Assembly (NCBI GenBank): GCA_012401045.1
Contig: GCA_012401045.1_4704.2
DNA length: 64,000 nucleotides
Reading direction: 5' to 3' (one strand)
Origin: a phage
The notes under the pieces were generated by a model. That model was not told the DNA's origin, did no database searches, and was given only the letters and a program-made list of their open reading frames with translations. Positions 10,057-51,385 of this stretch are shown piece after piece (position 1 is the stretch's first letter; each line of letters starts with the position of its first letter). A program made the position numbers and the translations under genes.

Positions 10057-11145
10057 ATGAGCGACCTGGCAACAGACAATCGCACAAAAGGGAGTCAGCT
10101 AGCTCCAGACAACAACGTAAGCGTTTTCCGTATCTATGCCTTGGGTACTGTTGCTGCCGACTTTTCCAATAAAAGTCTGGAGGAAGATCCTAACCAGACG
10201 CTGGAGGTCTTTCTTGATGAGATGATGTCAGGCGCTGATGGGAAAGTTGAAGCGGCGGGAAGCGTTAAAGAAGTCAGTGCAACAGACGCTCAAGGGAACA
10301 GTTATACGGCGAAAGCGGCAACGACTACCAGTGTACAGTGTTACTGGTTACCCTTTGGTAGTAACCGGATGACAGCACCTAACTTGAGGAAAGGTCAGCG
10401 TGTGGTGGTTTGGCGTACCGCCGATGAAGAACAACTCTACTGGCAACCCAAAGGAGGGGATAGTGAGCTGATGACCATGGAATCGGTTATCCTCACCGTC
10501 AGCGCACGTCCTAGCGCCAAGAAGGACCGTAAATCGATTTCAACGGAAGACTGCTATTACCTAATGGTTGATACCTTCCTCAAGAAAGCGGTTATCGGCA
10601 CCAGCGCACAGCTTGGTGAAGTTACCCAAGTCTACATGGAACTTAATCTGGACGAGGGTTACCTACAGGTTGCGGACAGCGTTCATCAAAATCTGTTGTT
10701 ACTCCATTTTGTCGAGCATATGCTGCGTTATCAAAACCAGGACGACAGCATCATCGACGTGACAAAAAAGAACATCACGTTCCAGTGCGAGGATACGCTC
10801 AAAGCCATTGCTAAGAACGATATCCGAATGAAAGCAAAAAACATTTATACCGAATGTGAGAACTTCGAGCGTACCAGCAAAACAGAAAGCGTTACGAGTC
10901 AGAATGTTTCTTTGAAGTGTGATCGTTACACCGCGCAAGTATCAGGACAGACCACGTTTAAATGTCCGAATACGGTATTCACTGGAGCTGTAAGCTTCAC
11001 AGGTGAAGACGGAAACACGATGACGTTGAATGGGAACTTCGTACACATCGCAGGCTCTTGGCGTTCACCAACCGGAACAAACGTATACACCCACGATCAC
11101 GGTGGTGTAGATCGTGGTAGCGGTCGTACAGACCCGTTCCAATAA
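10057..11145 (+). CDS. hypothetical protein (362 aa), possibly virion or baseplate associated
   Basis: ATG with AGGAG SD; C-terminal Gly-rich region with HDH motif (THDHGGVDRGSG) loosely reminiscent of spike-tip metal sites; assignment speculative. Confidence 0.45.
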   Translation: MSDLATDNRTKGSQLAPDNNVSVFRIYALGTVAADFSNKSLEEDPNQTLEVFLDEMMSGADGKVEAAGSVKEVSATDAQGNSYTAKAATTTSVQCYWLPFGSNRMTAPNLRKGQRVVVWRTADEEQLYWQPKGGDSELMTMESVILTVSARPSAKKDRKSISTEDCYYLMVDTFLKKAVIGTSAQLGEVTQVYMELNLDEGYLQVADSVHQNLLLLHFVEHMLRYQNQDDSIIDVTKKNITFQCEDTLKAIAKNDIRMKAKNIYTECENFERTSKTESVTSQNVSLKCDRYTAQVSGQTTFKCPNTVFTGAVSFTGEDGNTMTLNGNFVHIAGSWRSPTGTNVYTHDHGGVDRGSGRTDPFQ

Positions 11146-11164
11146 AAAAGAAATGCTATACAAC

Positions 11165-11199
11165 CTCCTTCCCCGGCCTTGACGGCTAGGGAAGGAGGA
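11165..11199 (+). terminator. GC-rich hairpin terminator (variant of the conserved hairpin family)
   Basis: CCTCCTTCC...GGAAGGAGG stem followed by ATTATAGTTTATTTATT. Confidence 0.5.
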
Positions 11200-11213
11200 T
11201 TATAGTTTATTTA

Positions 11214-11603
11214 TTAACGCGTTGCATTCTGGATGATTTCTTTTCCGATCTTAACCAAAGCGGGTATCTGTACAGCGGTTGCGCCTCGATGACGAAACGC
11301 GGTCGTTAACGCGGTATCGATACTCACCGCACGTCCGTGAAGACGATCGAAATAGACTTGAGTGATTGCGGTAGCGTAATCCTTTCGCTGTTTCTTGGTT
11401 TGGCTCAACAGCGCCGCACTATGACTAACGATGAAGTAAGCGATTAAGAAGAACGCCGCTGACCGCGAACCAGGTAGAAAACCTTGTCGCTTAGGAAGCA
11501 TCTCACAATCGCGAACAGTATTATCGTTCGCGAGCTCTTCCATGTCAACACAGCATAATTTTGCATAGGTGTGGAGATAGTGGGTAAAAGTTGAATTTAA
11601 CAT
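11214..11603 (-). CDS. hypothetical small protein (129 aa), central hydrophobic segment
   Basis: ORF in array of small co-directional genes. Confidence 0.4.
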   Translation of the reverse strand: MLNSTFTHYLHTYAKLCCVDMEELANDNTVRDCEMLPKRQGFLPGSRSAAFFLIAYFIVSHSAALLSQTKKQRKDYATAITQVYFDRLHGRAVSIDTALTTAFRHRGATAVQIPALVKIGKEIIQNATR

Positions 11604-11708
11604 TTTCTTTCCTCGATTGCCATGAGTTCAATGTATAGCTTAAACGTCACAGAACGACGTATAACGGTTTGTTTTAATTTCTAAGGGGTTTCCTTATCTA
11701 AGATTGAA

Positions 11709-12071
11709 TTAAAGCGTTCTGAAGAGTTCTGTAGCGTTCTCGTCACGTAGACAGGCTTCGTTCAACAATTCAGCTAACAGCTTCGACCGAACTTCAACAA
11801 ATGTCCTGAGGCGATGCTCCCATTCTAAACGGATAGTGTACGTATTATCCAGGTTTTTGTAATCAACGACAGATGTGGAACAACGGGCTTCGCGTTTGTT
11901 CACAGCACTCCAAACATCACGGATAACCGTCACGCCTTTCTTGGTACACGTAAACGTTAAAATAAAGCGATTATTCGCTGCTTCTTCACGGACATGACTA
12001 AATTCACTTCGTAACGATGAGACTTTGATAAGTCGGTCAATAGCTAACGATAAACCGATACGTTGTTGCAT
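11709..12071 (-). CDS. hypothetical small protein (120 aa)
   Basis: ORF in array of small co-directional genes. Confidence 0.4.
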   Translation of the reverse strand: MQQRIGLSLAIDRLIKVSSLRSEFSHVREEAANNRFILTFTCTKKGVTVIRDVWSAVNKREARCSTSVVDYKNLDNTYTIRLEWEHRLRTFVEVRSKLLAELLNEACLRDENATELFRTL

Positions 12072-12072
12072 A

Positions 12073-12498
12073 TCAAATCCCCTCTTTCAGAATCTCATTA
12101 AGACCGTCAGTAATCCAGTCGAACTTCGTCTTAATCATGGCTGGGTTCAATCCATATACTTCCCACACAAGCTGGGGTTTATGTGTTCCATCGTCCAAAC
12201 AAAGCACATCGATTGAGAGTACCATACCACCCGTCAATTTCATGTTCTCGCAACTACGAAGATATGCGGATTCTAGCAATACTTTCCCTAACGCAGTGCA
12301 AGCAAATGTTAACCGGGAAGAGTACAGGTACGATGACGTTTTACAGTAGGTTGCTGATATCGGTTGAATATGTTTGCGGAGTTTGGCGTCTTCACGTAAA
12401 AGCAATAACGTGTGATGTAACCGCGTATGCTCGGTAACCGATGAGCTATACTCACCGATGCACTCTTCGGCGACTGATTTAGGCCATTTAATTTGCAT
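12073..12498 (-). CDS. hypothetical small protein (141 aa)
   Basis: ORF in array of small co-directional genes; 1-nt gap to next gene. Confidence 0.4.
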   Translation of the reverse strand: MQIKWPKSVAEECIGEYSSSVTEHTRLHHTLLLLREDAKLRKHIQPISATYCKTSSYLYSSRLTFACTALGKVLLESAYLRSCENMKLTGGMVLSIDVLCLDDGTHKPQLVWEVYGLNPAMIKTKFDWITDGLNEILKEGI

Positions 12499-12513
12499 GT
12501 TCGATTCCCCTTG

Positions 12514-12957
12514 TTAGCAGTACGTGTCGTTCAACACGCGACTCACGTCTAAATGTTCTAGTTGATGTATAATGCCATCAGCAATGCGTTGTAGATAGGC
12601 TGTCTTATCCAATACCGAATCCGATGAAATCGCCCAGTAGGCTTCTGATACCCGATATTCGCTACCTTCACCGAGACTGACCTGATTAACCAGCTTCACA
12701 TCAGCGTATCTCGTCCCACGTTCAGCGTACCAGTAGATGTTTTCCAGTACGTCCTTTCCCGTTTGTGAAAACACAAACCAAAGCTTCACGTCTAAGCCGG
12801 ATACTTCGACAACAACGCAGCGAAGATGATTCTCCAAAGGCGCAAAAGAGGCTAAACGTTCCAGCGCGTTTTGCAGCGTGGGGTGATTAAGCTTTTCTAG
12901 ATCTTTAGCGGGTTGTTTAGATGATAGCGCGATCGATTTACAGAATTTGGTTTCCAC
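12514..12957 (-). CDS. hypothetical small protein (147 aa)
   Basis: GTG start with AGAGGAA SD; 20-bp palindrome 30 nt upstream. Confidence 0.4.
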   Translation of the reverse strand: METKFCKSIALSSKQPAKDLEKLNHPTLQNALERLASFAPLENHLRCVVVEVSGLDVKLWFVFSQTGKDVLENIYWYAERGTRYADVKLVNQVSLGEGSEYRVSEAYWAISSDSVLDKTAYLQRIADGIIHQLEHLDVSRVLNDTYC

Positions 12958-12987
12958 GGTAGGTTCCTCTTGATAGATGGTAGTAAC

Positions 12988-13007
12988 GGGGATACCGCGG
13001 TATCCCC
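12988..13007. promoter_or_regulatory. perfect 20-bp palindrome GGGGATACCGCGGTATCCCC
   Basis: Located between two small minus-strand genes, about 30 nt upstream of the 12957 start; shares GGATACC half-site with palindrome at 26312. Confidence 0.3.
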
Positions 13008-13065
13008 TAAGTCTTTATAACACATTCCAAGCCATATTGGATACAGGCTCGTTACGTTCGATGAA

Positions 13066-13467
13066 TCACATCAGTTGTTCTTTAAGTTGGGTTAACTTAT
13101 TCGCAACGATGGTCTCAACATCGATGATCTTGTTCATGTTGTCGAGGGTATCCTGCCAGATGAAAATATCCACAGAACGGGTTCCGGTTAACCCGTTCTC
13201 AGGACGATGGTCGCGGGTCACGTAGCGTGGTCTCTGCGGGCTGGTTTGTAACTCGATCCAAAGCGCATCTAACGGACCGTGGTCCGTGACACCTAAGGCG
13301 AAGAATTCACCTCGTACGACCAGAACATCATCAGCCGTCCTGACACGGGTTGATCCTTCGTACACCAATTCCATCTTTGCTCGGCAGGCCGGGTTCCCGT
13401 TCCACGCCTGGACGGCATCGGCAAGGGCTATTGACGTTGCGGTGGTGTTCGTTTGATCATGTTGCAT
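13066..13467 (-). CDS. hypothetical small protein (133 aa)
   Basis: ORF in array of small co-directional genes. Confidence 0.4.
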   Translation of the reverse strand: MQHDQTNTTATSIALADAVQAWNGNPACRAKMELVYEGSTRVRTADDVLVVRGEFFALGVTDHGPLDALWIELQTSPQRPRYVTRDHRPENGLTGTRSVDIFIWQDTLDNMNKIIDVETIVANKLTQLKEQLM

Positions 13468-13543
13468 TCTAAGCTCCTGTAACGCTCTCTAAGCGTCGTT
13501 TTAAGTTAAGGTATGTTTCCCTTCCTTGGGTTAGGTTATTGCG

Positions 13544-13819
13544 TTACACGGCTTTACAGCTTGCGTAAACCACAACTGTTCCGTTGTTGATTGCCTCAAC
13601 AACATCCTGGGTCAGTTTGGTCGCGAGTTTATTATCCGCATTCGGTACGTAATAACCTTCTCCTGTTTCAGTGACTAGGCGGTAACGTACTAATCCCACT
13701 GTACGCTCGACGCGTATCACCTTTTCAAGTTTGTATTTGATGATCTTCGTCAGGCCGACTGTGTCTGACGCGTAGATTGCTTTATAAACCTTGTTCTTTG
13801 CTGTCGGTTTCATCAACAT
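13544..13819 (-). CDS. hypothetical small protein (91 aa)
   Basis: ORF in array of small co-directional genes. Confidence 0.35.
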   Translation of the reverse strand: MLMKPTAKNKVYKAIYASDTVGLTKIIKYKLEKVIRVERTVGLVRYRLVTETGEGYYVPNADNKLATKLTQDVVEAINNGTVVVYASCKAV

Positions 13820-13859
13820 GATTTCTGTTGTACTTTCCTTTTCGCTTGTTGGTGTTGGA

Positions 13860-14159
13860 TTAAGGTTTAGGTTCCGTTTTGTGTTGTGCGAGTAGTGTGT
13901 TGATCTGCTCCCGTTGTTCTTTTAAGTATGCGGGAAGCTGGTCTTCCCGTACCGTTCCGATTTCCAACGTGATGTACCAGCGTTGTTCGGAAGCCTGCCA
14001 TTGAAAACCGCTCTGTAACCGTAGGATGCTAGGATCACGTACCTTGCTTGCGCTGTAACGGTTGAACCAATCCAGGTATTCTGCTTTCCCTTCCTCGTCG
14101 GCAACGTAACGCTGCACGCTGTTCTTGCCTTTGTTCTCGTATCCCGTTGCACGTATCAT
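13860..14159 (-). CDS. hypothetical small protein (about 99 aa)
   Basis: Start taken at internal ATG 14159, which forms an ATGA overlap with the stop of the upstream gene (track start 14213). Confidence 0.4.
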   Translation of the reverse strand: MIRATGYENKGKNSVQRYVADEEGKAEYLDWFNRYSASKVRDPSILRLQSGFQWQASEQRWYITLEIGTVREDQLPAYLKEQREQINTLLAQHKTEPKP

Positions 14160-14938
14160 GCGAACGTTTCTCCTGTAACGTGTTGTGGACGTTGTAGCAT
14201 GGTAGCATCCCATTGTACGATCCGGCTCCGGCTTACCAGCATCATGACGGATTCATCGTCAAGCCCTGGTTGCGCAACCGGCAACCAACGTTCGTTAAGC
14301 ACCTTCGCTTCAACGCGTTTCTTGCGGGGATTGTAACGCACCTCGCTAACCCAAGCGAACCCAAGTGGATGCACAACCCGCGGATAATACGTGCGAAGCA
14401 ATTGATGCATCCGATCTGTCACCTCCAAGCTCGCCTCCGCCATGTAAGGTTTCACCGTGGTAAGCTTTTTGGTGTAATACGTTCCAACGGTATGGTTACG
14501 CCAACTTGGCAAGGCATGATCCCCTTCTCTCAGTTTGCTATCCGAGTTCATCGGCCAGACCTGCTGTTTACCGGCCAGCATCGCGTACTGCCGATCAACG
14601 CAACGAACCTGATCGGCGAACAATGGATCCAGAACATCATCCACCGCACCCTTATTGCGATAACCGTGATGTACCACCAACCTGCTTGCGCTCATCGATG
14701 CGGGATGCTGGCTCTTATGCGCATACAGCCCTCCGTCACCGCGAGGGTCGTAAAGATAGCCGCATGCGCCACGCCATATCACCTTGCCTACGGTTCTCTC
14801 GTTTTCAAGCAGCATCGTCGGCCCATCAAGCAAATTGGTGAACCACTGCACCTTCACGCATTCCGCTTGGACATGCTCAGGTAATGCCTGATACTCTTTT
14901 TGGGTGTATAAGGTATCAAAAATGATTTCATCGTTCAT
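14156..14938 (-). CDS. hypothetical protein (260 aa)
   Basis: ATG with AGAGGA SD; first gene downstream of promoter-like motif copy 2. Confidence 0.5.
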   Translation of the reverse strand: MNDEIIFDTLYTQKEYQALPEHVQAECVKVQWFTNLLDGPTMLLENERTVGKVIWRGACGYLYDPRGDGGLYAHKSQHPASMSASRLVVHHGYRNKGAVDDVLDPLFADQVRCVDRQYAMLAGKQQVWPMNSDSKLREGDHALPSWRNHTVGTYYTKKLTTVKPYMAEASLEVTDRMHQLLRTYYPRVVHPLGFAWVSEVRYNPRKKRVEAKVLNERWLPVAQPGLDDESVMMLVSRSRIVQWDATMLQRPQHVTGETFA

Positions 14939-15020
14939 TTAAAAGATCCTCTGTTTTTCACGTTAATTAAACAACGTATTGATTTCTATTTGACAGAACA
15001 CGAACATTGTACGTATCTAT

Positions 15021-15044
15021 CACTTAGGTAATATAGCCGTGAAA
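15021..15044 (-). promoter_or_regulatory. conserved 24-bp promoter-like motif, copy 2
   Basis: Identical to copy at 2489-2512; about 80 nt upstream of the 14938 start. Confidence 0.45.
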
Positions 15045-15151
15045 GGATTTGTGTTACTGTAAGGGTTTTGTTTTTAAGAAGGGATGGATTTAGAAGAGGT
15101 GTTTCAAGGAAGGTAAACGAGGATAGGTATTTTGATTTAAGTAAGTAAGAT

Positions 15152-15249
15152 GTTATCTGTATTGTCTAAGTTATCTTGTTTATCTTAGGTTTAAGTTGTT
15201 TTTATTTATCTTGTTTGTATGTTTAAATTAGATCAATAAGCTTATCTTC
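15152..15249. repeat. iteron-like short direct repeats (five TTATCT-containing units) in AT-rich non-coding region
   Basis: GTTATCTGT, GTTATCTTGTT, TATCTTAGG, TTATCTTGTTTG, CTTATCTTC within about 100 bp. Confidence 0.35.
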
Positions 15250-15263
15250 AAAACAATGGATAA

Positions 15264-15311
15264 CATGTGTTTACTACGCTCGTTGAGTTATAACTCAACG
15301 GTAACACATGT
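15264..15311. repeat. nested inverted repeat (ACATGTGTT ... GTTGAGTTATAACTCAAC ... AACACATGT)
   Basis: 18-bp perfect palindrome flanked by 9-bp inverted arms, inside the gene-free region. Confidence 0.35.
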
Positions 15312-15719
15312 CATCTGTGCATTACACTCCGTTACATGCTAGTTAACAACGTTTTGTGAAGACAAAACGTTCAACTCAAAAAACATTTGTGATACTCTTC
15401 TTCACGTTGTTCATCAGAGTATCTCGTCTATACTCATTGCATTCGTATACGACATAACCGTTATACGCTAACGCTACGCTTATAGCTTGATAACTCTAAG
15501 GATAAAAACATAAACTCGCTTCGCTCGTTTAGTTTTTCTTTTTCTTAGAGTTATCCTGTTGCTCGTCTCTAAAGGACTTCGCTCCTCCCCCGTCCCCCGA
15601 AGGGGCCGAGGTCGTGGAAATTTTACTTTCCAAATACATTTACAACATCTGTAAACTTTTACTCCAGGTACTTAATCTTATCATTAGAAATTATAAAAGA
15701 GAATAAACACAAACATAAA

Positions 15720-15752
15720 CCTTCCTCCTTCCCTTACGGGTTGGAGGAAGGG
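15720..15752 (-). terminator. conserved GC-rich hairpin family copy downstream of the 15763-16656 gene
   Basis: Minus-strand reading CCTTCCTCC-AACCC-GTAA-GGGAA-GGAGGAAGG followed by TTTATGTTTG. Confidence 0.5.
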
Positions 15753-15762
15753 AGAGATTAAA

Positions 15763-16656
15763 TTATTCGGAAACGTTATAACCGAATACTGCTTTACCGT
15801 AGGTGTGGGTACCGTCGGTTAACGACACCACTAACACATTGCTGTACGTAGCGTTAACACCCTTGTCGGTAGACCCGGTGGTAACACCGTTATAGACAAA
15901 GGTAGCTGTTTGCAGATTGGTTTTCAGTTCATTGATGATATCATCACTCACACCGGTCTGCTCTTTGATCAGGGTAGTCAGGTTACCTGCCAGGCTTGCA
16001 TCGATCTTGGTTTCGTTACTGGTAATAGCTTGTAAACCTGCAGTGTAGGTGCTGAAGTCTAACGGATAGGTTAACAGACGTGCTGACGTTTTGGTACCAT
16101 CGCCTTCATCAACATAGGTTAAGTTACCCAGGTTGGTAACCTTGATGATGTTAGCCAGATCCAGCGTGGTGTTATAAACTTTAACTTGAACAGAGCCATA
16201 CCACGCCAACGAATCTTCTTTGGCTTCCAGGGTGATCGTCTGGATACCATGATCGTCGAAGGTAACAGGATTAGCTAACGTATCGGCTTTGATGTCTTTC
16301 GCTTTATCCAGGAACTTCTCACCGGAAGGCGTGATCATACCGTAGCGTTGAGCTACAAGGTCAACCACATCACCGATGGTGGTGTTAGCAGTAACGTTAA
16401 CACGTACGGCGATCTTCTGGAACCACTTAGCCAGATCCAGACGATGGTAGGTAACATCGCGTTCATTGAAGTAAGGGGTACCTTCACCAGGGCTAAGCGT
16501 TAAAGTTGCTTCTGGAGCAGAAGCGCTTTTGGATTTAAGAACGTATTTAAGATCACTGTATTGGAAGCTGGCACCAGTGTCGGCGTTGAGCTGGTTGATC
16601 TCATCAACGATAAGTTGCCAAGGTGTTTTTAAAGTAAGTGAAACTTGAGTTGCCAT
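15763..16656 (-). CDS. paralogous virion-type protein family member (297 aa)
   Basis: ATG with GAGGT SD; shares about 90-aa domain (Y-x-R-L-D-L ... YG[ML] ... LAW[YT]GSVQV) with ORFs at 16798, 27716, 29538 and 30400; codon usage biased. Confidence 0.55.
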   Translation of the reverse strand: MATQVSLTLKTPWQLIVDEINQLNADTGASFQYSDLKYVLKSKSASAPEATLTLSPGEGTPYFNERDVTYHRLDLAKWFQKIAVRVNVTANTTIGDVVDLVAQRYGMITPSGEKFLDKAKDIKADTLANPVTFDDHGIQTITLEAKEDSLAWYGSVQVKVYNTTLDLANIIKVTNLGNLTYVDEGDGTKTSARLLTYPLDFSTYTAGLQAITSNETKIDASLAGNLTTLIKEQTGVSDDIINELKTNLQTATFVYNGVTTGSTDKGVNATYSNVLVVSLTDGTHTYGKAVFGYNVSE

Positions 16657-16797
16657 TTTCTACCTCTATGGTTGTTACATCACTCTCAAAAGATGTAAGT
16701 GTTTACAGAAATAAGTATATTTTATATTAATGTAAATAATATGGAGAACGACTCCGAATCTCCTTTTCGACCATCAAAAATCAGAGGACACACAATC

Positions 16798-17340
16798 ATG
16801 GCCTTAGACTTTAACAAAGCAGCGAAATCCCTTCTGCTTGATCTTATTAACACCAAAGCGACCCGCACATTGGCTGAAGAAGAACTGCAGTTCGGTACTC
16901 CGGGGGCATCTTCCGAACATGAAAAGAACACCGTTATTCAGCTGGACGCTGCAGTTGGTGCAGAAAACCTGCAGGGTAGTCAGCAGTTCTACTACGATCG
17001 TCTGGCTCTGTCCGAAGTTTTCGCTGATGTAACCGGCGATGTTACTTTCGAACTGCCGCATGGCACTGACAGCATCCAGGCTTCTGAACTGGTAAGCAAG
17101 CTGGTCACCAAATTCGGCCTGGCTTCCCTGACCGGTGAAATCCAGGAAGAAACCTTCCAGCTGTCTGCAGGTACTGTTGGTCAGGTAACTCTGACTGCGA
17201 TCGAGGGCGGCCTGGTATATACCGGCACCCTGCAGGTTGCACTGACCTACGCAGCTGCACCGAAAGATGACCTGGCAACCGTTCTGGCGAATAACGTAGC
17301 TGAAGGCTTCGAGAAACCGACCGTTAGCGTTGTTGGCTAA
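16798..17340 (+). CDS. short highly expressed paralog of the same family (180 aa), candidate abundant virion protein
   Basis: ATG 16798 with GAGGA SD (track start 16699 lacks RBS); strongly optimised codon usage; two hairpins downstream. Confidence 0.55.
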   Translation: MALDFNKAAKSLLLDLINTKATRTLAEEELQFGTPGASSEHEKNTVIQLDAAVGAENLQGSQQFYYDRLALSEVFADVTGDVTFELPHGTDSIQASELVSKLVTKFGLASLTGEIQEETFQLSAGTVGQVTLTAIEGGLVYTGTLQVALTYAAAPKDDLATVLANNVAEGFEKPTVSVVG

Positions 17341-43028: not shown

Positions 43029-43178
43029 CGTCAACCTCCATCAGATTGAAAACTATCACGCATAATACATTTCCCTTTTCTTGTTCTTATCGAGCCGACA
43101 GCCGACGGTTTCAGCATCGTTCCTAGCGCGAGAACGACCTTACGTGTTGTCTATGCCTTATTCATCGCAGGCGTCTGT

Positions 43179-43202
43179 CACCTAGGTAATGTAAGCGTCA
43201 AA
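43179..43202 (-). promoter_or_regulatory. conserved 24-bp promoter-like motif, copy 3 (variant TTTGACGCTTACATTACCTAGGTG)
   Basis: Downstream of capsid-gene hairpin and about 150 nt upstream of the 43028 start. Confidence 0.4.
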
Positions 43203-49535: not shown

Positions 49536-50438
49536 TTACTTAGCCTTTGAGTTATACGGACTAACATGTTGTTGTACTCGTTGGATTGTATCGTAGTACG
49601 GGTTAAGTTGATTGAACATGTTGTTGTGTGGGTGATAGCCATATGGCGCATTTTGCCTTGTTGGTGAGAAACCTTGTTGAGAAGGACGGTTTGAATTAAC
49701 CGCGAGTACGTAGTAAACCAAATTTTGGCGGTCGAACGTTCCTTCGTTTTTGAAGGTGTCGGCGTAGGCGCTTACCGCTGGAGCGAGCCTATCACCATCG
49801 GTTGTAATGATTGTGCCATCGGGATAAACTTCCCGAACGACGCACCATGTTCCGATGAGAACATCTTTGGGTGATGTATTACCGTATCCGGTTGTAACGG
49901 TAAGGTAAGTATCGAACCCTTCAGAACAACAAGGATGACGATAGATGGGTCCTGTCATTTCCAGTCTATCGGTGTCACCGCATTTCTCTATTGAGAGCGA
50001 TGATGTGTCGGTTTTGAAATTGTCAAATTCTTTCTTTAAGTCGATTACGGGTTCTTTCGTATAGTACTTCTTGATTGCTTTGACGTAAAGATCGGGAACG
50101 GTTGTCAGCAATCCGTTATACCTGATTCTCAGGTTTTCGAGTAATCCAAAGATGCTCGCGCATGCCTGTTCGCGAGGTTTTGTAAGATAAGAGATCCCCC
50201 CAGGAACGCTGGGATCTTTGAGAAAGAAGATTGCGTTATTGTCGTTGTGCGATGCGTTGAAGAAAACGATTGATTCGATATATACGGAGCATAGGCTGTC
50301 GTTGGCGTCGTCAGATAACACCCAGATGCACTCATCGGTCGTCTTGTTTAAAAGTTCTGTTTTGTCGACCAAACGTTGTTTCATTGCGAGGAAATGTGCC
50401 TGTTGTTCAGCGGATAATTCACGATAAATGGTGGTCAT
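49536..50438 (-). CDS. hypothetical protein (300 aa), paralog of 50524-51306
   Basis: Shared motif IY-x-HP-x-C ... YLT-x-T-x-G ... REVYPDG-x-I; ATG with AAGGAG SD. Confidence 0.5.
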   Translation of the reverse strand: MTTIYRELSAEQQAHFLAMKQRLVDKTELLNKTTDECIWVLSDDANDSLCSVYIESIVFFNASHNDNNAIFFLKDPSVPGGISYLTKPREQACASIFGLLENLRIRYNGLLTTVPDLYVKAIKKYYTKEPVIDLKKEFDNFKTDTSSLSIEKCGDTDRLEMTGPIYRHPCCSEGFDTYLTVTTGYGNTSPKDVLIGTWCVVREVYPDGTIITTDGDRLAPAVSAYADTFKNEGTFDRQNLVYYVLAVNSNRPSQQGFSPTRQNAPYGYHPHNNMFNQLNPYYDTIQRVQQHVSPYNSKAK

Positions 50439-50523
50439 GTTGAGCTCCTTGATTACGATAAGGATGATTGCGGTTTTGTGGTGTTGGTAGGGCCCTAAAC
50501 AAATGAACCCTACTAATATTAGG

Positions 50524-51306
50524 TTAATCGGGATCGGCGTAGAAATGGTGAGGATAGCCGGAGTACGATCCCGCGTTACCGGTTATGGATTCTTTCTGGG
50601 AATCGACGACGAGTGCATAGAACTGTCGGGAATTTGTTAGCGTTGAGAAATAAGAGGAAAGGACTTTTTCATTCAACGCATCGCAAGGTAGACAGGTGCG
50701 ACCGCAAAACGTCACGATACGGCCGTCAGGATAGATCTCACGAATCATTCTCCACTCGCCAATATCGACTGGTGATGGCGCTGCTACACCACCTGTTATC
50801 GTTAAGTAACGATCGTACGTGGTATGGCATTCAGGATGAACGTAAATCGGTTGGGCATCAATACTATCGTTTTCTGTTTGATCTTTATTCACGTATACCT
50901 CAAGGTAGATTGTTGGTAACCCGGTTAGAACGCCAGTGTCACGACGTTTTTTGGTAATCCGGGGACGGATATTATCGAGCACGCCTTCCAGTTTTTCTGC
51001 GACTTCGTCAGCCGGTAATATATACCCGTATGTTGGTTCTGGGTCATCACCGTGGCTAAATAAGATACGACAGTCGTTTTTATTAAATTCTATATCTTCA
51101 GGTGGGAAGATGATGACGCGAACCGTATGGCGTTCTGCGATATAAAATCCTTCAGGCCCCTCAGTTTTGGTAAGTGTAAAGGACCAGGATGAATGATCTT
51201 CAAGTGACGTGCCTGCCAGGAAAAAGTCCGCCCGAATTGGTGCGTTCCATTTCGCGATCATATTGGCGTGACCAATAACGCCTAATTTTTGATAAATATC
51301 TGTCAT
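50524..51306 (-). CDS. hypothetical protein (260 aa), paralog of 49536-50438
   Basis: Shared Cys/His-containing motif; ATG with GAGGA SD; promoter-like motif copy 4 upstream. Confidence 0.5.
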   Translation of the reverse strand: MTDIYQKLGVIGHANMIAKWNAPIRADFFLAGTSLEDHSSWSFTLTKTEGPEGFYIAERHTVRVIIFPPEDIEFNKNDCRILFSHGDDPEPTYGYILPADEVAEKLEGVLDNIRPRITKKRRDTGVLTGLPTIYLEVYVNKDQTENDSIDAQPIYVHPECHTTYDRYLTITGGVAAPSPVDIGEWRMIREIYPDGRIVTFCGRTCLPCDALNEKVLSSYFSTLTNSRQFYALVVDSQKESITGNAGSYSGYPHHFYADPD

Positions 51307-51361
51307 GATTGTATCCTCGGTTATTAAGAGAATTTACAACGATAACAGTAACCGCTGTTAT

Positions 51362-51385
51362 CACCTAGGTAATGTAGTCGCGAAA
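51362..51385 (-). promoter_or_regulatory. conserved 24-bp promoter-like motif, copy 4 (variant TTTCGCGACTACATTACCTAGGTG)
   Basis: About 55 nt upstream of the 51306 start, immediately downstream of a family hairpin. Confidence 0.4.

Follow-up and report, generated by a model that had tools for sequence, protein, structure and literature searches.

We analyzed a 64,000-nucleotide stretch of phage DNA (contig GCA_012401045.1_4704.2; hereafter the window), in which eight small open reading frames (ORFs) lie in a row on the minus strand at positions 11214-14938. In the explanation that we favor, which we hold as a whole with moderate confidence, this locus forms a single early transcription unit in a jumbo phage of the Goslar-like, nucleus-forming kind (family Chimalliviridae). 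Escherichia phage vB_EcoM_Goslar (Goslar) was the sole match to positions 11000-15200 among the 50,697 phage records compared, with 91% identity. Goslar is a nucleus-forming jumbo phage with a genome of 237 kilobases (kb), the first 64 kb of which are colinear with the window. In the order of transcription the eight ORFs are the orthologues of Goslar gp021, gp020, gp019, gp018, gp017, gp016, gp015 and gp014, names that we also use for the genes of the window; the Goslar annotation of gp014-gp021 reads ‘hypothetical protein’ throughout. An earlier description of this DNA (the original prediction) had listed eight co-directional ORFs, and all of them were found at the positions given there, on the minus strand, a detail that it omitted.

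The evidence for early expression came from a published Goslar RNA sequencing table that compares a normal infection with knockdown of ChmA, the nucleus shell protein, at 30 min. Under ChmA knockdown, Goslar stays arrested in the early infection vesicle. The transcripts of gp014-gp021 kept their level or rose slightly under knockdown (log2 fold change +0.8 to +1.4), and those of the flanks, gp005-gp013 and gp022-gp036, fell by 2.8-7.6 log2 units. In round terms both flanks dropped by 4-7 log2 units, or 16- to 100-fold. The other Goslar blocks at about +1 log2 unit were gp001-004, gp037-040 and gp044-047, with the genes between the blocks down by about 2.5-7.5 log2 units. Each ChmA-independent block carries a copy of the motif described below at its 5’ edge, and the designation ‘early operon’ is therefore well supported. 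The read density from gp021 to gp014 (1.14, 1.02, 0.91, 1.57, 0.94, 0.89, 0.69 and 0.77 reads per nucleotide in replicate NT-A) varied within about 2.3-fold, an evenness that fits one transcription unit. The early timing proposed in the original prediction consequently stood for the Goslar orthologues, which are nucleus-independent and have an early-type motif upstream; for the phage of the window itself we infer it from them.

The motif upstream of the operon is a 25-nucleotide string, TTTCACGGCTATATTACCTAAGTGA, at 15020-15044, which lies 82-106 nucleotides upstream of the first start codon and is repeated exactly at 2488-2512. Two more copies of the motif, at 43178-43192 and 51361-51375, have AYATTACCTARGTGA in common. 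The 10-nucleotide core, TAYATTACCT, occurs four times in the window compared to 0.08 expected, which together with the exact 25-nucleotide repeat bears out the ‘promoter motif copy 2’ of the original prediction. Each of the four core copies in the window (4/4) is intergenic, on the minus strand and just upstream of a minus-strand gene block. Goslar carries three core copies within 1-50 kb, compared to 0.19 expected, and a fourth copy with one mismatch before gp004. At the gp021 promoter site the left part of the motif, TTTCACGRCTAYATTACCT, was kept in all eight genomes in which we compared the island (the window, Goslar, two IMG/VR contigs and four contigs from assemblies). The next six bases are AAGTGA in the window and TCATGA in Goslar; the Goslar promoter reads ...CCTTCATGA, whereas the promoter of the window reads ...CCTAAGTGA.

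A 16-mer of the motif, TAYATTACCTARGTGA, occurs in several copies per genome in IMG/VR contigs of 220-285 kb, including those of Erwinia phages Huxley and ChrisDB, suggesting that the motif is common to a wider group of related jumbo phages. By our estimate the 107 raw IMG/VR matches to the 16-mer are close to chance level for so large a collection, so that weight can be put only on the contigs of 220-285 kb with several hits per genome. According to a review of RNA polymerases in jumbo phages, each phage has a conserved AT-rich motif of about 10 nucleotides near -10, upstream of early operons, which is the early promoter of the virion polymerase where tested. The presence of the 16-mer in Huxley and ChrisDB fits this description, and judging by its sequence the motif upstream of the operon belongs to the type of early promoter that is conserved in jumbo phages encoding an RNA polymerase. 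A scan of positions 10900-16000 for sigma-70 promoters found 8 sites compared to 8.1 in shuffled sequence, so host-type promoters are not indicated; a scan of the same positions for intrinsic terminators found 5 sites compared to 5.2.

The surroundings of the promoter vary among the relatives. Three of them (L006, L116 and L119) have an insertion of about 43 nucleotides at the promoter upstream of their gp021 homologues (alignment columns 930-980). The insertion holds a hairpin, TCATGA...TCATGA, and a second partial motif copy, GCGTTACCT, suggesting that the promoter was partly duplicated. We also observed five direct copies of AGATAA on one strand within about 95 nucleotides, at 15153-15247 (minus strand), 125-220 nucleotides upstream of the early promoter. 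Nowhere else in the 64-kb window, which holds 45 copies on both strands, is AGATAA clustered so densely; none lies upstream of the other three promoter copies, and the number of repeats differs between genomes. The cluster may be an array of binding sites.

The features of the locus are given below in the order of transcription.

15020-15044, minus strand: predicted early promoter of the virion RNA polymerase type; core TAYATTACCT at 15026-15035; site kept in 8 genomes
14939-15019, minus strand: leader (5’ untranslated region) of about 80 nucleotides, strongly conserved in alignments and ending in the ribosome-binding site AGAGGA
14156-14938, minus strand: gene 1, 260 amino acids, orthologue of gp021
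13860-14159, minus strand: gene 2, 99 amino acids, orthologue of gp020; mean pairwise identity 91% in 8 genomes
13544-13819, minus strand: gene 3, 91 amino acids, basic (isoelectric point 9.6), orthologue of gp019
13066-13467, minus strand: gene 4, 133 amino acids, acidic, orthologue of gp018
12988-13007, no strand assigned: GC-rich hairpin formed by a perfect 20-bp palindrome, intergenic between genes 4 and 5
12514-12957, minus strand: gene 5, 147 amino acids, GTG start, orthologue of gp017; first of three tandem paralogues
12073-12498, minus strand: gene 6, 141 amino acids, orthologue of gp016, paralogue of gene 5
11709-12071, minus strand: gene 7, 120 amino acids, orthologue of gp015, more distant third paralogue
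11214-11603, minus strand: gene 8, 129 amino acids, basic, orthologue of gp014
11164-11198, no strand assigned: bidirectional terminator hairpin with a T-run; an inverted repeat, annotated as a terminator in Goslar

The terminator closes the operon and is common to it and the convergent baseplate gene (10057-11145, plus strand). Coding sequence takes up about 91% of 11214-14938, and the successive intergenic gaps are -4, 40, 76, 108, 15, 1 and 105 nucleotides. The translational coupling that had been proposed for some of the genes is borne out by the 4-nucleotide overlap of genes 1 and 2 and with the distances of 1 nucleotide between genes 6 and 7 and 15 nucleotides between genes 5 and 6. The longest ORF of gene 2 (13860-14213, start at 14213) has 117 amino acids and overlaps gene 1 by 58 nucleotides. 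The start at 14159 gives 99 amino acids, has its own ribosome-binding site and forms an ATGA overlap with the stop codon of gene 1; it is likely the real start and matches the Goslar annotation and the gene-caller starts in other relatives.

We also considered a reading in which the ORFs, in part or all of them, do not represent genes, which could appeal to database annotation that never goes beyond ‘hypothetical protein’. A GGAG-type Shine-Dalgarno sequence precedes all eight genes. The ratio of nonsynonymous to synonymous substitution rates (dN/dS) against Goslar was 0.04-0.50, below 1 in every gene where it was computable, and the values of 0.2-0.5 contrast with 0.02 in core neighbors. RNA sequencing reads cover all eight orthologues, a published Goslar table lists mass-spectrometry peptides for those of gp016, gp017 and gp018, and one family has a confident structure model. 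The substitution ratios, ribosome-binding sites, transcribed orthologues and peptides together show that the eight ORFs are real genes; the non-gene reading is contradicted by the data, and we consider it extremely unlikely.

The sequence of the island varied strongly between genomes that are otherwise nearly the same. The flanking baseplate gene is 99-100% identical in three IMG/VR relatives. Between the window and Goslar, amino acid identity was 62% for gp021, 96% for gp020, 76% for gp019, 94% for gp018, 63% for gp017, 99% for gp016, 98% for gp015 and 99% for gp014. Against the relative L004 it was 38% for gp018, 50% for gp017, 48% for gp016 and 75% for gp015, and gp021 was 44% identical to its counterpart in L006. 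Nucleotide identity changes abruptly along the region, from about 100% to 60-70% and back; one of these sharp boundaries lies inside gp021 near 14520, and the 3’ two-thirds of gp019 diverges from Goslar as one patch. Synonymous divergence (dS) from Goslar was 0.6-0.8 in gp021, gp019 and gp017 and at most 0.09 in the rest, a pattern showing that recombination replaced entire alleles and that these genes did not simply evolve faster in place. Mean pairwise identity was lowest in the gp021 family (0.35) and the gp017/016 family (0.40), followed by gp018 (0.57), gp019 (0.81), gp015 (0.84), gp020 (0.91) and gp014 (0.92).

The number of genes in the island varied as well. The window, Goslar and L006 have eight, and the other five genomes have ten or eleven. 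In the larger islands gp020 and gp019 are separated by two or three additional gp021 paralogues (280-300 amino acids); these islands also have an extra gene of 145 amino acids beside a gp018 homologue of 156 amino acids, and one or two genes of the gp017/016 type. By these comparisons the island is a recombination mosaic and a copy-number hotspot.

We searched all eight proteins against Pfam, PHROGs, NCBIfam, PADLOC and the sequences of the PDB and found nothing above noise, including no significant match to known anti-defense or defense families or to solved structures; the lack of recognizable domains in the original prediction was thereby corroborated. Searches with tblastn against the 50,697 phage records found Goslar only. 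For gp021, 23 relatives were found among 5.8 billion protein clusters, all of them in phage-sized contigs of about 240 kb or in Escherichia coli, Shigella and Salmonella assemblies. When 1.84 billion representative proteins were searched with a profile, only Goslar-like sequences were returned, among them four additional, distant gp021 paralogues of the same phage group; neither this nor the tblastn search found homologues across the Chimalliviridae, as core genes of that family would have. The locus had no match in complete E. coli genomes or in plasmids. By sequence, the eight proteins are therefore restricted to Goslar-like phages, that is, to one genus.

Within the operon, gp017, gp016 and gp015 are a tandem paralogue family by profile comparison. 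In hhalign, gp017 and gp016 matched along their full length with an expectation value (E) of 3.2e-5 over 124 columns, and they fall into one BLASTP cluster through intermediates from relatives. The gp017/016 profile matched gp015 with a probability of 71% (E 3.8e-5, 92 columns), and the corresponding hidden Markov model, run against the reading frames of the window, recovered the gp015 frame at E 3.2e-5, the next best frame being at 0.17. An all-against-all BLASTP of the eight window proteins alone gave no significant pair, the paralogy being visible only with profiles and intermediates from relatives. No relationship of gp018 to the gp017/016/015 family was detectable in these comparisons. 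We do not claim gp018 and the extra 145-amino-acid gene of the relatives as distant paralogues, the match between them being weak (hhalign E 0.049).

The original prediction had proposed structure prediction for each protein, and this was informative for one family. The AlphaFold model of gp017, built with 28 family sequences, was confident (predicted local distance difference test score, pLDDT, 83; predicted template modeling score 0.80) and consists of a helix, two strands, a helix, two strands and a long helix that would form a two-layer alpha/beta sandwich. Its matches were generic two-layer sandwiches (TYW3-like proteins, designed proteins, Pcc1, RNA polymerase alpha/L and DCoH). The only invariant residues of the gp017 family are L28, L41, F61, G67 and W108, which are hydrophobic or structural and suggest a scaffold or binding protein rather than an enzyme; as the family has no conserved polar residues, we infer neither an enzymatic role nor the function of any matched fold. 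The gp021 model was poor (pLDDT 54) and gave no usable fold match. The gp021 family has 1-4 copies per genome, and the protein consists of a conserved N-terminus, a hypervariable center (about amino acids 31-140) and a conserved C-terminal domain (about amino acids 141-260). Invariant residues among its 19 members are mostly hydrophobic, the only polar ones being H190 and D244. In L006, an IMG/VR relative, the gp021 homologue (14122-14898) stops 9 codons early (...MLRHP*YNQGETFA), as do the 249-amino-acid variants of Salmonella-derived contigs, so the C-terminal tail is dispensable. The operon proteins are hydrophilic except gp014, which has one hydrophobic segment of 19 residues (amino acids 49-67, Kyte-Doolittle mean 1.85).

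The palindrome at 12988-13007, GGGGATACCGCGGTATCCCC, has no mismatch and no second copy in the window, and the ribosome-binding site of gene 5 follows about 30 nucleotides downstream. A hairpin with the same GGGGA/TCCCC outer stem occupies this place in Goslar, L006 and L004, in a stretch with an identity of otherwise only 67-69%; the inner sequence differs in the relatives (GGGGAC-ATCGCC-GTCCCC and GGGGACA-GGTG-TGTCCCC). No T-run follows the hairpin. In Goslar the read density is 1.57 before the hairpin and 0.94 after it, a drop that fits a partial stop, a processing site and a stabilizing 3’ hairpin alike. The palindrome of the original prediction is thus real and its hairpin is kept in three relatives, and the role assigned to it, that of marking a regulated sub-unit, is partly supported.

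We propose the following sequence of events for the operon. A virion-packaged RNA polymerase would be injected together with the DNA, would recognize TTTCACGRCTAYATTACCT at 15020-15044 and would start a few bases downstream, transcribing all eight genes up to the bidirectional terminator at 11164-11198. Transcription would take place in the early infection vesicle, before and independent of the phage nucleus. Host ribosomes would translate the messenger RNA (mRNA) in the cytoplasm, several genes being translationally coupled; the products are small, mostly soluble proteins of at least three families. The exact transcription start, the single polycistronic transcript, the cytoplasmic site of action and a host-directed function are inferred parts of this scheme.

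The lack of conserved catalytic residues in the families makes binding proteins likelier than enzymes, and the gain, loss and exchange of family members between near-identical phages reads as a dispensable, fast-changing accessory module. On these grounds the operon proteins most likely bind variable host components, either defense or takeover targets, in the first minutes of infection. Such binding would fit their restriction to one genus, the allele swapping and copy-number change, the relaxed purifying selection and the absence of conserved catalytic residues. A host-takeover or anti-defense role, which the original prediction had raised, is a hypothesis that fits the data; the searches found no homology or structural match that would support it directly. 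More specifically, we suggest only tentatively that the gp021 and gp017/016/015 families are new host-factor-binding effectors of nucleus-forming phages whose variable surfaces track variable host proteins acting on the sole exposed stage, serving as inhibitors of defenses triggered by early infection or as decoys that escape the sensors. The exposed stage, if this is true, would be that of the early mRNA, the early proteins and the infection vesicle.

Several observations weigh against the host-directed reading of an early operon. The transcription data are those of Goslar, 91% identical to the window, and establish nucleus-independent expression at 30 min rather than the start site itself or per-gene levels at 5 min. 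The gp014 gene is a near-invariant, conserved anchor of the island (99% identity); its dN/dS of 0.04 is that of a core gene and not of an arms-race gene, and it stands apart from the others as an invariant, strongly constrained and possibly membrane-associated protein. Mosaicism is common in phages and by itself is no proof of host-driven selection. With about 19 copies of gp017 per virion estimated in a virion preparation, this protein may have a virion-associated role. In the same mass-spectrometry data, gp016, gp017 and gp018 gave only trace to low estimates; none of gp014-gp021 was among the 28 proteins of the virion model or the abundant unmodeled proteins, and their expression is opposite to that of the flanking structural genes. 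Late expression and conserved structural proteins, which the original prediction had named as findings that would speak against it, were thus both absent from the operon.

The virion estimate for gp017 might instead indicate that the proteins serve the phage's own early compartments by building or maturing the vesicle or by seeding the nucleus. The proteins are made exactly when the vesicle is active, the hydrophobic segment of the invariant gp014 could span a membrane, and similar folds are predicted in other nucleus-forming phages (template modeling scores 0.38-0.58). However, the vesicle and nucleus machinery is family-wide, and these genes have no sequence homologue outside Goslar-like phages; they also range from 8 to 11 in number and are swapped as whole genes between phages with 99% identical core genes. 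The low-copy signals are in the range of the non-virion RNA polymerase and of E. coli proteins in the same sample, and we regard a compartment role as unlikely. T-even exclusion genes are typically expressed early and diversify rapidly, features shared with the operon, and the proteins might function in competition between phages or in a persistent, carrier-like infection, through superinfection exclusion or damping of virulence. The origin of the genomes agrees with such a role: most of the homologues that we found are from assemblies of E. coli, Shigella and Salmonella, and 59 of the 60 known Goslar-like genomes come from bacterial isolate assemblies, which has been interpreted as persistent infection. 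Seven of the eight proteins, however, lack membrane or nuclease signatures and none of the genes has a known link to persistence, making this explanation improbable as well.

The sharp recombination boundaries and the presence/absence variation could also result if the variable genes were cargo, useless to the phage, of a mobile selfish element that is tied, for instance, to a homing endonuclease. Domain searches of the island genes found no HNH, GIY-YIG, LAGLIDADG, transposase or integrase domain, the island has no flanking repeats, and one promoter and one terminator serve all of its genes. The cassette explanation is contradicted by these data, and we give it very little weight. We therefore continue to favor an early operon whose proteins probably bind host components.

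We made further observations in the neighborhood of the operon. A non-coding stretch of about 300 nucleotides (about 15380-15700, minus strand) lies between the terminator hairpin of gp022 (15720-15751) and the early promoter. It is near-invariant in 8/8 Goslar-like genomes, single-copy and present in Goslar-like contigs only, with both sides variable or carrying insertions and deletions. It contains no ORF of more than 36 amino acids; Rfam gave no hit at gathering thresholds and one hit at E 0.84 in the upstream gap, and a transfer RNA search of the region found none. Its predicted folding exceeds that of shuffled sequence, with z -4.4 for the minus and -4.1 for the plus strand, and it ends in a hairpin followed by TTTTTT. 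Its substitutions are few, and those at predicted pairs mostly turn G-U into G-C or A-U, or the reverse, when read on the minus strand. This stretch may be a new phage non-coding RNA or a cis-acting element.

The neighboring orthologues of gp023 and gp022 (16760-17330 and 15763-16656; DUF7941 proteins abundant in Goslar virions) were unusually variable, with a nucleotide identity to L006 of 0.36-0.71 across 16760-17330 and a dN/dS of 0.36 for gp022; the gp022 homologue of L119 is broken up into two ORFs. Another variable early island, at 49536-51375, lies downstream of the promoter copy at 51361-51375 and holds two paralogous genes (BLASTP E 2e-19) of 260 amino acids (50524-51306) and 300 amino acids (49536-50438). 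Goslar has neither of them; only the 62-amino-acid gp047 is annotated there, with the promoter core inside its ORF. Gene 1 also has 260 amino acids but is unrelated to the ORF at 50524-51306.

In nucleus-forming jumbo phages the DNA is shielded from restriction enzymes and from clustered regularly interspaced short palindromic repeats (CRISPR), which raises the question of which host defenses still reach them and how the phages respond. In the exposed first minutes only the vesicle-derived mRNAs and their proteins are in the cytoplasm. The operon is a compact, promoter-defined set of first-wave proteins and the most variable stretch in a neighborhood that is otherwise 97-99% identical, and it thus supplies a short, clearly bounded list of candidates for experiments in Goslar, the E. 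coli model of the phage family. With the promoter consensus, early operons can also be predicted in Goslar-like and SPN3US/Huxley-like phages.

The closest known system is the Goslar operon itself (HOV27_gp014-021 / Goslar_00014-00021), which has the same order, strand, flanks and terminator and proteins of 62-99% amino acid identity; its gp021, gp017 and gp019 are different alleles from those of the window (62%, 63% and 76% identity, dS 0.6-0.8). We found no published functional study of Goslar gp014-gp021 in the literature. A small-gene early operon behind a virion-polymerase promoter is a known class in jumbo phages. The early operons of phiKZ-like phages likewise have a conserved AT-rich motif of about 10 nucleotides upstream, consist of small genes of unknown function and, like the Goslar orthologues, need neither the host polymerase nor the phage nucleus. 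They differ in that only the Goslar / SPN3US-like (Erwinia phage Huxley-like) group has the motif sequence described here, and phiKZ-like phages have no sequence homologue of any of the eight proteins. Four findings appear to be new: a promoter consensus for the Goslar group of phages, two paralogue families, the gp017-family fold and a recombination and copy-number hotspot at the island.

Comparable islands exist in other virulent phages. The hyperplastic regions of T4-like phages and the accessory or anti-defense islands of other virulent phages lie between conserved modules and consist of small, early, lineage-restricted genes that are shuffled by recombination and differ in content even among close relatives, and many members of the T4 and T7 islands have proven targets, such as restriction, toxin-antitoxin and other host systems. 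The targets of the present island likely differ from those of T4 and T7, because defenses that target DNA are already blocked by the vesicle and the nucleus. JADA (Pa36 gp316) and phiKZ gp014 are also early and family-specific and act at or near the early infection stage; neither has sequence similarity to the island proteins. JADA is described as essential and conserved within its family, whereas the island described here varies even within one genus.

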